The notes beneath the pieces are model-generated. The model did not search any database. It was not told where the DNA came from and saw nothing but the letters and a program-made list of their open reading frames with translations. Shown one piece after another: positions 47,797 through 49,686 of a stretch of DNA of 54,170 bases (positions are counted from its first letter, which is position 1; each line of letters begins with the position of its first letter). The translations under genes and the position numbers were made by a program. Origin of the DNA: a bacterium (GTDB lineage: Bacteria > Bacillota_I > Bacilli_A > RFN20 > CAG-826); NCBI GenBank assembly GCA_963593015.1, contig CAVAYV010000063.1:1-54170 (forward strand). Reading direction: 5' to 3'.

Positions 47797-49686
47797 TCAG
47801 TTGCTCAAAAAGCGACGAAAATAATCCCTTAAGCCAGGATCTTCGAAATAAACATATGTGCCTCGCATCCCCCTAGTCAAAAGAACCTGATAAGTGTTTC
47901 TGATGAGCTTTTCGGCTAGCTTAGTATCTTTGCAGGTACGGATGCCACTGCTATGGTCGCTTTTGGCGATTTTTGAAGGATCATAAATAACCTTTCCGTT
48001 CTCATAACGGATATCCTTGCCAACTATCACTCCGCAATATTCCATATCTAAACCCTGACAAGTGTGGATGCAGCCTACTTCTTCTATCGATTTGTCGTCA
48101 TATAACCAGGAATAGTCGTTTTTATTCATATTCCACTTAGCTAGGAATTCTCCATCGTCCAAAGCAATATCGAAATCGCCATTATCAAAATCATTTTTGC
48201 TTTTCCATTCATAGCAATATCCGGCCACTAACCTAGAATGGCCATATTGCTTGTTCTTTTTGATGATTTCTTCTCTCATTTCATTGGCTCTATCGAAAAT
48301 CCTAAAATCGTACTGATAGGGCTTATAGGCTAGAAAATTCTCATTGGAGGGATATCCTAAGACAAAACGAATGAAATCAATATAGTTAGTGCCTCCTAAA
48401 ACCCTAAATTCGCTTGTGAGGCTTTGACATTCAATGTATTTGGAGTGACAGGATTTAGCCATTTCCTTGATTCGCTCGATTGTGACGTAATCGTTTTTTG
48501 TGACCATTTGATCTTCATCGATGAAAAACACGGCTACTTTGCTCCCTTTAATGGCCTTTTCAAGAAGATTCACATCCTTAGAGACTCCAATCCCGCCTTT
48601 CCAAGCGAACATACGATGGGCTTCATCAAACAAAGCGCAGCCAAAATCATCCTCCGCCGCATTTTTCAATGACACCGGGCTTTTAAACAAAGCCGTGATG
48701 GCTTCTTTCTTATAATCATCACCTACTAAAATCTTGCCATAATAATCTCTTGGGGCTCTATTTTGAGTAAAATAAGCCGCATTGATTGGTTTAAAGCCTC
48801 GCATTTTGTCACCATTCACCAATTGCCCTAAGGCGTTAATGGCGACTATAGATTTGCCTGTTCCCGGGCCACCCTTGACCACGATTGTTCTTTTTCCGCC
48901 ATATTCGTCTGAATCGCGGGCATATTCTACGATCGTTCCAACAGCGGCAGCCTGCTCATCGGTCAAAGAGAACATCTCTTTGCCGTTTAAGGCATCGGAA
49001 AGTAAGCTTCCTAATTTCAAAGAAGGCCTAATAACGCTGGATTCAATCTCGTAAAGAATCTCTTTTGAGGCTTTTGACACATATTTGGAAATAAAATCCG
49101 CAAGTTTTTGTTTATCGTCTTTCAAAAAAGCTGGCGAGTTAGTTACTTCAGGAAAACTTCTAGTGTCCGAAAACAAAGAAGCATAGCCTTCGTTCATGTT
49201 GTGCAAATATGAACAACTTATTAAATTAATTTTGTTATCTTGAACATAAGCATTGAAGTTTTGGATGATTCCAGCATAATTTCTCGCTTGATAAGACGGA
49301 TGCCAATAATCACCTTCTCCGCCACCCCCGAATGTATGCACAAAATTAGGTTTGGAGCACCTAGACGCATTGCTCCATTGTTTTAGTTCGATAATGACCA
49401 CATTCTTTGATCCATTGGAGTCCTCTCCATAAACAAGCAAATCAATTCTGTGCCGATCTTGATTAATCGCGTATTCCACCGAAACATCAACATCGTCAGG
49501 CAATCTTGCGAGTTTTAAAACATTCGCCATCTCTGGCAAAGAGTTCTTCCAAGATTCAAAAGAGCCATCAGAGCTACCGATATGTTTCTTTTTAAACTCA
49601 TTTTCTACGATTTTAGCAATGTTTTTATCGCCATTAGAAAAAGAATCATCGTAGAATTCTTTGCAAGTTTTTTGATACACAATCAT
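47797..49686 (-). CDS. PD-(D/E)xK nuclease plus P-loop SF1-type helicase, DUF2075/Schlafen-helicase-like (Nhi-like)
   Basis: 629 aa. It has RIDLLV..x..VVIIELKQW (D82, E100, K102), Walker A GGPGTGKS (aa 272-279), LFDEAHR, FFIDEDQ, CIHTCQGLDMEYCGVIVG and LLTRGMRG. A GGTGG RBS lies upstream. Confidence 0.8.
   Translation of the reverse strand: MIVYQKTCKEFYDDSFSNGDKNIAKIVENEFKKKHIGSSDGSFESWKNSLPEMANVLKLARLPDDVDVSVEYAINQDRHRIDLLVYGEDSNGSKNVVIIELKQWSNASRCSKPNFVHTFGGGGEGDYWHPSYQARNYAGIIQNFNAYVQDNKINLISCSYLHNMNEGYASLFSDTRSFPEVTNSPAFLKDDKQKLADFISKYVSKASKEILYEIESSVIRPSLKLGSLLSDALNGKEMFSLTDEQAAAVGTIVEYARDSDEYGGKRTIVVKGGPGTGKSIVAINALGQLVNGDKMRGFKPINAAYFTQNRAPRDYYGKILVGDDYKKEAITALFKSPVSLKNAAEDDFGCALFDEAHRMFAWKGGIGVSKDVNLLEKAIKGSKVAVFFIDEDQMVTKNDYVTIERIKEMAKSCHSKYIECQSLTSEFRVLGGTNYIDFIRFVLGYPSNENFLAYKPYQYDFRIFDRANEMREEIIKKNKQYGHSRLVAGYCYEWKSKNDFDNGDFDIALDDGEFLAKWNMNKNDYSWLYDDKSIEEVGCIHTCQGLDMEYCGVIVGKDIRYENGKVIYDPSKIAKSDHSSGIRTCKDTKLAEKLIRNTYQVLLTRGMRGTYVYFEDPGLRDYFRRFLSN

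Follow-up and report, generated by a model that had tools for sequence, protein, structure and literature searches.

Why does a gene for a large nuclease-helicase stand directly upstream of the S10 ribosomal-protein operon, and is it a gene of immunity or of genome maintenance? This question is raised by a 54,170-nucleotide stretch of DNA (contig CAVAYV010000063.1 of GenBank assembly GCA_963593015.1, positions 1 to 54,170 of the forward strand; hereafter the window) from a bacterium of the GTDB lineage Bacteria; Bacillota_I; Bacilli_A; RFN20; CAG-826, in which a gene for a protein of 629 amino acids (aa) lies on the minus strand at 47797-49686, between pfkB and rpsJ. A first-pass annotation, made from the sequence alone, had proposed that the protein joins a PD-(D/E)xK nuclease to a DUF2075 helicase and that the gene is a horizontally acquired, single-gene anti-phage system. 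As described below, the gene probably encodes a stand-alone, ATP-driven nuclease-helicase that would serve in innate immunity to the DNA of phages or plasmids, much as the known proteins Nhi and Nhi-like do; its history is different from the one first proposed.

Domain Architecture and Conserved Residues

The open reading frame (ORF) and all the motifs quoted in the first-pass annotation were recovered in the translation at the positions given for them. The codon for D82 is found at 49441-49443 and that for K102 at 49381-49383, and the Walker A sequence is followed by the further helicase motifs LFDEAHR (residues 352-358), FFIDEDQ (387-393), CIHTCQGLDMEYCGVIVG (539-556) and LLTRGMRG (602-609). 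The annotation had named DUF2075 and had proposed a Pfam search as a check; in this search, PF09848 (DUF2075, now SLFN-g3_helicase) matched residues 265-616 along the full length of the profile (positions 1-354 of 354) with 274.2 bits and an E-value of 2.4e-81, against a gathering threshold of 24 bits. The match is far above chance, and the protein is a member of PF09848. For the N-terminal 235 residues, Pfam returned nothing significant, with NERD and DUF7149 appearing only below the threshold, and an NCBIfam search of the window protein gave no meaningful match.

The N-terminal motif is nevertheless strictly conserved. In an alignment of 45 homologous sequences with 46–96% identity to the window protein, E71, D82, E100, K102, Q103 and W104 are invariant; a second invariant block comprises D126, H129, P130, S131, Q133 and Y137; and in the helicase, Walker A (G272...K278 S279), D354-E-A-H-R358, Q393, R428, Q544-G545, R596 and R605 are invariant. 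Because the catalytic residues do not vary in these 45 homologs, both presumed active sites are considered to be under selection.

Predicted Structure

The AlphaFold2 (AF2) model of the whole protein is confident, with a predicted local distance difference test score (pLDDT) of 87.3 and a predicted template modelling score (pTM) of 0.88. Its PDB neighbours are superfamily 1 (SF1) helicases, mostly of the SF1B type, including SLFN11, RecD2, RecD, coronavirus nsp13 and Upf1, with E-values of 1e-9 to 1e-7; the top neighbour is SLFN11 (7zel, E 1.4e-9). In addition, residues 1-235 were modelled separately, with a pLDDT of 94.3. The top ten PDB neighbours of this N-domain are all PD-(D/E)xK nucleases, among them Card1, Can2, BstEII, Cdn1, BsoBI and EcoO109I, and XisH and EndoMS come lower in the list; the individual fold matches are weak (E 6e-3 to 0.2, none at 1e-3). 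In the model, E71, D82 and E100-L-K102 are located on consecutive predicted strands.

With an alpha/beta core and the E...D...(D/E)xK signature, the predicted N-domain has the features that define the PD-(D/E)xK superfamily, and its catalysis is putative. The nuclease assignment rests on the motif, on its invariance and on a fold signal that is consistent but weak, no single structural match being strong. Sequence searches of the PDB, whether started from the single sequence or from the family profile, returned marginal P-loop matches only, and a search of a viral structure library gave generic SF1 helicases only. The two-module architecture of the first-pass annotation, a PD-(D/E)xK-like N-terminus followed by a DUF2075 SF1 helicase, is thus upheld by Pfam, residue invariance and fold neighbours.

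Relationship to Validated Defence Proteins

It has been reported that Nhi (SERP2475) from Staphylococcus epidermidis, a protein of 606 aa, carries a PD-(D/E)xK domain at its N-terminus and a DUF2075 helicase in its centre, that immunity needs both, and that the protein nicks and degrades DNA, as demonstrated biochemically; the Nhi family is patchy, is tied to defence islands and is present on plasmids and phages (Bari et al., 10.1101/776245). Homologs of Nhi have been reported in Streptococcus phages, and phage replication intermediates have been proposed as the basis on which Nhi tells self from non-self. The first-pass annotation was therefore correct in linking Nhi to this architecture. Membership of the window protein in the same family, which had been suggested together with it, did not hold at the sequence level. 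The PADLOC Nhi model PDLC02372 gave a weak and partial match of 34.5 bits (model positions 178-330 of 470, residues 236-429), in which the nuclease domain is unmatched; AbiO gave 34.4 bits (residues 237-476) and PDC-S41 44.1 bits (model positions 422-622 of 657, residues 399-613), both also partial. The window protein falls short of full-length membership in the Nhi, PDC-S41 and AbiO models, and other members of its family give the same weak partial matches.

A remote relationship was found with Nhi-like from Bacillus cereus FSL H8-0482, a validated defence protein that has the organisation of Nhi without sequence identity to it (Millman et al. 2022, 10.1101/2022.05.11.491447); phages with a mutated or lost methylase escape Nhi-like (10.1101/2022.08.27.505566). 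The comparisons used the first 399 of its 611 aa. By BLASTP, which places the window protein outside the Nhi-like family as well, only the P-loop stretch was aligned (E 6e-4). With hhalign, the alignment of the window protein's family matched Nhi-like over 273 collinear columns with a probability of 96.6% and an E-value of 5e-10; these columns pair E71, D82 and E100-x-K102 with FEYE, RRPD and ECK of Nhi-like and also include W46, H129/Q133, Walker A and Walker B. When the N-domain was compared by itself with the Nhi-like N-terminus, the probability was 61% (E 8e-5). The profile alignment suggests that the window protein is a remote collinear homolog of Nhi-like with the same design, which would represent a third sequence clade. 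Lentibacillus persicus, which carries a member of the window protein's family (L174), is missing from the Nhi-like genome table of Millman et al., a weak piece of evidence for a difference between the two families. DARNA (PD-T7-3) was also considered as a relative and was ruled out, being a HEPN protein.

Distribution and Neighbourhoods of the Family

Among 50%-identity cluster representatives, 487 relatives were found at E <= 1e-30, mostly full-length proteins of 620–650 aa. At least 577 of 185,579 GTDB species genomes (about 0.3%) hold a relative, in many bacterial phyla and in some archaeal bins; plasmid copies occur in Methanosphaera, Halalkalicoccus, Hymenobacter and Priestia, and a phage record of Microcystis contains one as well. 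P0004, a homolog with 56% identity, is on a 51,428-bp contig binned as the metagenome-assembled genome (MAG) of a Methanomicrobiales archaeon, which reflects either inter-domain transfer or mis-binning.

In the loci that were examined individually, homologs stand beside type II-A CRISPR-Cas9 and beside AIPR, MTaX1, HATPase_c_3 and Z1; PLD-DEAD-helicase(-DUF3427) genes adjoin homologs on two unrelated contigs, and Nmad3 and UvrD are further neighbours. A 47%-identical homolog (L198/L199) is part of a mobilizable element that encodes a MobL relaxase and a serine recombinase; it lies directly 3' of a gene for a T5orf172/ResIII protein of 961 aa, possibly a further type of partner. Some of the examined homologs are found among plain housekeeping genes. 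Judged from these individual loci, the neighbourhoods fit a mobile, defence-type gene.

Fusion variants were also detected (P0096, P0135, P0136, P0146, P0238 and P0216): some homologs carry a C-terminal Peptidase_S24 domain (LexA/UmuD-like) or a C-terminal second helicase of the PIF1 type, and within the same homolog set others have an N-terminal PNP_UDP_1 phosphorylase or Sel1 repeats in place of the nuclease. Such variants suggest varied sensing or regulation.

The MazG-like Partner Gene

An operon partner was counted in the best 80 GTDB loci (L116-L195). In 53 of them, a gene for a MazG-like protein of about 110 aa (PF12643, confirmed by Pfam for four representatives) adjoins the nuclease-helicase gene on the same strand; it is upstream in 46, with gaps of -4 to +66 nt, downstream in 6, and overlaps the 3' end in 1. 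Loci L012-L028, L110-L112, L196 and L200 were covered as well: the pairing was seen in 7 of 17 loci of a first scan, in the metagenomic contigs L110/L111 and L200, and in the Microcystis phage record, and P0062 is a single polypeptide that joins both partners. In two further loci (L005 and L021), NUDIX genes occupy the partner position. PADLOC v2 gave no match for the MazG-like proteins and only weak partial matches for the helicases, and a search of the available literature found no paper that mentions MazG together with DUF2075.

The window copy is different. No MazG-like or NUDIX homolog is present in the 54-kb window or in the related loci L001 and L003, so that the copy falls outside a module defined by adjacency or fusion of MazG-like and nuclease-DUF2075 proteins. 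The solo form recurs, being found in 27 of the 80 sampled genomes and in 10 of the 16 loci most similar to the window protein (L116-L131). The single-gene system of the first-pass annotation is thus an accurate description of the window copy and does not extend to the family, about two-thirds of whose sampled members are paired with a MazG-like gene.

Presence Among Relatives and Selection

The source lineage belongs to the uncultured gut Bacilli, and the window was compared with members of a genus-level clade; its S10 is 100% identical and its L3 86–92% identical to those of several MAGs labelled Bacillales or Bacilli. Three lineages carry the gene between pfkB and rpsJ: the window, the near-identical strain or species L001/L002 (protein P0001, 96% identity) and the more distant L003/L004 (P0002, 69%). 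In the clade members L030, L031, L033, L204 and L207, the pfkB-rpsJ spacer is empty. In L029 (1-4200) and L206 (2700-6600), it is occupied by a cassette of other origin, some 4 kb long, whose genes include DUF4417, Cys_rich_CPCC and unknown ones, and to which L029 adds an HTH_3/Peptidase_M78 (ImmA/IrrE-like) pair; from this different cassette in a sister lineage it follows that the spacer is a recurrent insertion spot. Within 8 kb upstream of rpsJ, no homolog was found in about 75 more distant relatives, and the distant relatives that have a 41–48% identical homolog carry it elsewhere (L116, L122 and L129, against the rpsJ loci L094, L075 and L108). In JGI metagenomes, a species-specific exact pattern gave no match, and the gene was missing from all 5 loci matched by a genus-level pattern. 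The variable presence at the rpsJ-upstream locus that had been predicted is therefore borne out in close relatives, and the gene is not universally conserved in synteny.

Variable presence does not mean recent arrival. Between the window and L001, the ratio of nonsynonymous to synonymous divergence (dN/dS) is 0.059, with a dS of 0.31 for the gene and 0.32 for pfkB, and the gene is functional and under strong purifying selection. In the comparison with L003, synonymous sites have reached saturation, and the 69% ortholog nevertheless occupies the same spot; this is at odds with the horizontally acquired gene of the first-pass annotation, as far as a recent arrival was meant. In a tree built by neighbour joining from 5 kb of DNA of the S10 operon, the three carrier lineages group together, weakly, which fits a single gain. 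The gene is accessory and yet an old, vertically maintained resident of its clade.

Two side observations concern the same loci. Firstly, pfkB is unusually divergent, with protein identities of 57% to L003 and 47–50% to L030-L033, against 91–92% for phosphoketolase and 86–92% for L3; it may have been exchanged together with the variable spacer. Secondly, S10 operons of this Bacilli lineage were found in assemblies titled Roseburia hominis, Lachnospiraceae, Bacteroidaceae, Oscillospiraceae or Paludibacteraceae (L031, L033, L038, L063, L085, L099 and L103), and the taxonomy given for these 'cleanbin' assemblies cannot be relied on.

The Locus and Its Signals

The features of the locus are collected in Table 1. 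The gene is flanked by the divergent pfkB and by the S10 operon (rpsJ), which has its own promoter; it has no co-oriented neighbour, and its description as a stand-alone gene is accurate for this locus, where no operon partner is present.

Table 1. Coordinates of the nuclease-helicase gene, its domains and motifs, and surrounding features in the window.
Feature	Position	Strand	Basis or remark
Nuclease-helicase coding sequence, complete	47797..49686	(-)	ORF list; ATG start, 629 aa, no interruption
N-terminal domain, residues 1-235, predicted restriction-endonuclease-like fold	48982..49686	(-)	AF2 domain model, PDB neighbours
Putative nuclease core E71...D82...E100-L-K102 (-Q103-W104)	49381..49476	(-)	Invariant in 45 homologs
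DUF2075/SLFN-g3 SF1 helicase core, residues 265-616	47839..48894	(-)	Pfam PF09848
Walker A GGPGTGKS, residues 272-279	48850..48873	(-)	Direct sequence; G272, G275, G277, K278, S279 invariant
Walker B / motif II DEAHR, residues 354-358	48613..48627	(-)	Invariant in 45 homologs
Divergent intergenic region gene/pfkB, 99 bp, AT-rich	49687..49785	.	Sequence
GGTGG Shine-Dalgarno-like box	49693-49697	(-)	Six nt 5' of ATG
pfkB	49726-50688	(+)	320-codon ORF; true start probably M21 at 49786, giving 300 aa
Palindrome TTGTGCA-N3-TGCACAA, then T-run	47710..47726	.	70 nt 3' of stop; about 100 nt upstream of S10 -35 box
S10 operon promoter TTGACT-17-TATAGT	47581..47609	(-)	10/12 consensus, conserved in all relatives; locus boundary, outside the gene
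ADP-ribosyltransferase exoenzyme ORF, 175 aa	53603-54130	(-)	PF03496, E 1.6e-8
94-aa ORF overlapping the end of the 175-aa ORF	53338-53622	(-)	No Pfam match

The first-pass annotation had also credited the gene with its own ribosome-binding site, an AT-rich promoter and a downstream hairpin with a T-run. The GGTGG box and the AT-rich spacer are present. Promoter-like hexamers reach 9/12 at best, and their number in the region (10) is not above the expectation from shuffled sequence (6.7 +/- 2.7); a promoter of the gene's own is plausible from the AT-rich divergent spacer together with the GGTGG box. The shorter, 300-aa form of pfkB, on which the limits of this spacer depend, is the one called in L001 and aligns to Pfam PfkB from profile position 1.

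The hairpin and T-run are likewise present, and as an RNA hairpin the palindrome has a folding energy of -14.7 kcal/mol (z -3.7) and occurs once in the window. Its role as the gene's own terminator was rejected as stated: the arms are invariant in 8 aligned relatives, 5 of which lack the gene and have pfkB transcribed away from the palindrome, and the loop, the T-run and the surroundings vary. The palindrome is thus part of the conserved rpsJ upstream region and may also terminate the transcript of the gene; it looks at least as operator-like as terminator-like and may serve the rpsJ promoter as an operator or insulator. The position was aligned in L001, L003 and L029-L033. A conserved TTCGAT...ATCGAA pair was seen between the palindrome and the S10 -35 box.

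Composition had been cited as a sign of foreign origin. The gene is indeed more AT-rich than the ribosomal operon, with 39.7% GC (40.5% at third codon positions, GC3) against 47–52%; however, ordinary genes of the window have 36–44% GC, and it is the ribosomal, EF-Tu/EF-G and RNA-polymerase genes that are the outliers. Because the GC content of the gene equals that of ordinary genes, composition is uninformative on foreign origin, and it was rejected as evidence of horizontal transfer. Around the gene, no flanking direct or inverted repeats were found beyond chance level, no integrase or transposase was found nearby, and an Rfam search of 47000-50000 gave no match.

Two further features of the window are recorded here. 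The 5' leader of the S10 operon (47433-47580, minus strand, about 150 nt) is almost invariant across the genus-level clade; RNAalifold gave a conserved multi-helix fold of 38 pairs, compensatory changes being seen in 3, and no Rfam family matched at E <= 1. The leader could be an uncharacterised ribosomal-protein autoregulatory leader. Meanwhile, the ADP-ribosyltransferase ORF and its overlapping neighbour lie in a stretch (53338-54130) of 31–33% GC, the lowest in the window, and two such pairs are present in L001; the pair looks like a toxin/immunity cassette, and on composition the case for foreign origin is better here than for the DUF2075 gene.

Functional Interpretation

From comparison with Nhi and Nhi-like, it is considered probable that the gene product is a stand-alone, ATP-driven nuclease-helicase of innate defence. 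The architecture is intact, the catalytic residues are conserved, the gene is under purifying selection, the family is patchy and mobile, and there is remote homology to a validated defence protein. In such a protein, the DUF2075 SF1 motor would load on foreign DNA or on replication intermediates and would translocate along or unwind it, and the N-terminal PD-(D/E)xK domain would nick and then degrade that DNA. DNA would thus be the substrate of both a helicase and a nuclease activity, an anti-phage phenotype would be expected, and self DNA would have to be spared. This discrimination may depend on phage replication intermediates or on the status of single-stranded DNA-binding protein (SSB), as proposed for Nhi, or on modified DNA, as suggested for Nhi-like; the latter is hinted at by the MazG-like, NUDIX, DUF3427 and Nmad3 neighbours.

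Several points weigh against this interpretation. The proposed defence function is drawn from tested but distant relatives, and the weak, partial PADLOC matches make the likeness to proven defence proteins a remote one. The window locus has no defence neighbours, the gene being flanked by pfkB, phosphoketolase and the S10 operon; the composition of the gene is native; and it has kept one chromosomal spot across saturated divergence, which is stabler than many defence genes. Repair-type neighbours (UvrD, UvrA-like, SbcCD and SRAP) are found in some loci of the family. In addition, about two-thirds of the sampled relatives have a MazG-like partner that the window copy lacks, and the solo protein may work differently from, or less well than, the paired forms.

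This last point leads to a different view of the family, which is tentatively entertained as possible. The family may be a widespread, undescribed two-gene conflict system, in which a MazG-like pyrophosphohydrolase would hydrolyse phage-specific or modified deoxynucleoside triphosphates (dNTPs) and this hydrolysis would be coupled to the degradation of invader DNA by the PD-(D/E)xK-DUF2075 protein; the window gene would then be a solo derivative that is stable beside the ribosomal operon.

It is rather unlikely that the protein is instead a genome-maintenance enzyme with no immune role, which would act on damaged DNA, stalled forks or non-canonical nucleotides, mostly together with a house-cleaning pyrophosphohydrolase of the MazG-like or NUDIX type. 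The partner genes (MazG-like in 53 of the 80 genomes, NUDIX in its place in others), the UvrD, UvrA-like, SRAP and SbcCD neighbours, and the native composition and stable location of the window copy would all be in keeping with such a role. So would the variants with a C-terminal Peptidase_S24 domain, since a domain of this LexA/UmuD type is classically cleaved in the SOS response. Similarly, a response of eukaryotic Schlafen relatives to defective replication and to extensive damage of DNA has been reported (PMC6765204). However, a gene that is found in about 0.3% of species and is absent from sister species at the same locus is far too patchy for core repair; plasmids, a phage record and a mobilizable element all hold copies, and others stand beside CRISPR-Cas and AIPR/Z1; and, in profile comparison, the closest homolog that has been characterised is a protein validated in defence.

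More improbable still is an orphaned half of a two-gene system, which would have lost its MazG-like partner and would need an unlinked factor or have taken on a reduced or different role. The tight adjacency of the partner in most loci, its fusion in P0062 and the absence of any MazG-like or NUDIX homolog from the window, L001 and L003 are what such a loss would leave behind. Against it, solo copies recur in 27 of 80 genomes and predominate among the closest relatives (10 of 16), the solo gene is under strong purifying selection with all catalytic residues intact, and Nhi and Nhi-like each act as single genes. Finally, an RNA-directed or translation-linked role, as might be read from a Pfam family named for a DNA/RNA helicase domain, from SLFN11 as the top structural match and from a gene that abuts the S10 promoter, is hardly credible, as the N-domain is PD-(D/E)xK-like with no Schlafen core RNase, only one small clade has the gene next to rpsJ, homologs in related genomes lying elsewhere, and the hairpin, together with a separate promoter, insulates the gene from the operon.

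If the defence interpretation is true, the family is a third sequence clade of one-protein nuclease-helicase immunity of the Nhi/Nhi-like kind, which standard defence-finding models miss, and it is found here in an uncultured gut lineage for which hardly any phage defences have been described. The locus indicates that accessory, probably defensive genes can settle directly upstream of the most conserved operon of a genome and persist there through speciation, and genes settled in this way escape detection by composition. Meanwhile, the MazG-like link in about two-thirds of the genomes and the fusions with Peptidase_S24, PIF1 and PNP_UDP_1 bear on how Nhi-type proteins tell foreign from self.

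Comparison with Known Systems

The group III Schlafen proteins SLFN11 and SLFN5 have the PF09848 helicase domain in common with the window protein, together with an antiviral or replication-stress theme. Their N-terminal Schlafen core RNase (AlbA_2-type) was not found in the window protein by Pfam, and a PD-(D/E)xK-like domain stands in its place; sequence similarity is marginal, with an E-value of 0.06 even when the family profile is used.

Nhi differs in that its PADLOC model aligns only with the first half of the ATPase core of the window protein; a tblastn search of a phage collection with the window protein recovered none of the reported Streptococcus phage homologs of Nhi. The two are alike in combining a PD-(D/E)xK N-terminus and a DUF2075 helicase in one polypeptide of about 600 aa, and both belong to patchy families found on plasmids and phages.

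Nhi-like shows no BLASTP similarity beyond the P-loop, most members of the window protein's family have a MazG-like partner, a possible further difference, and escape by methylase loss, known for Nhi-like, is not known to apply to the window protein. In design, however, the resemblance is close: the two proteins are similar in size (611 and 629 aa), each places a nuclease before a DUF2075 helicase, and each is encoded by a single gene.

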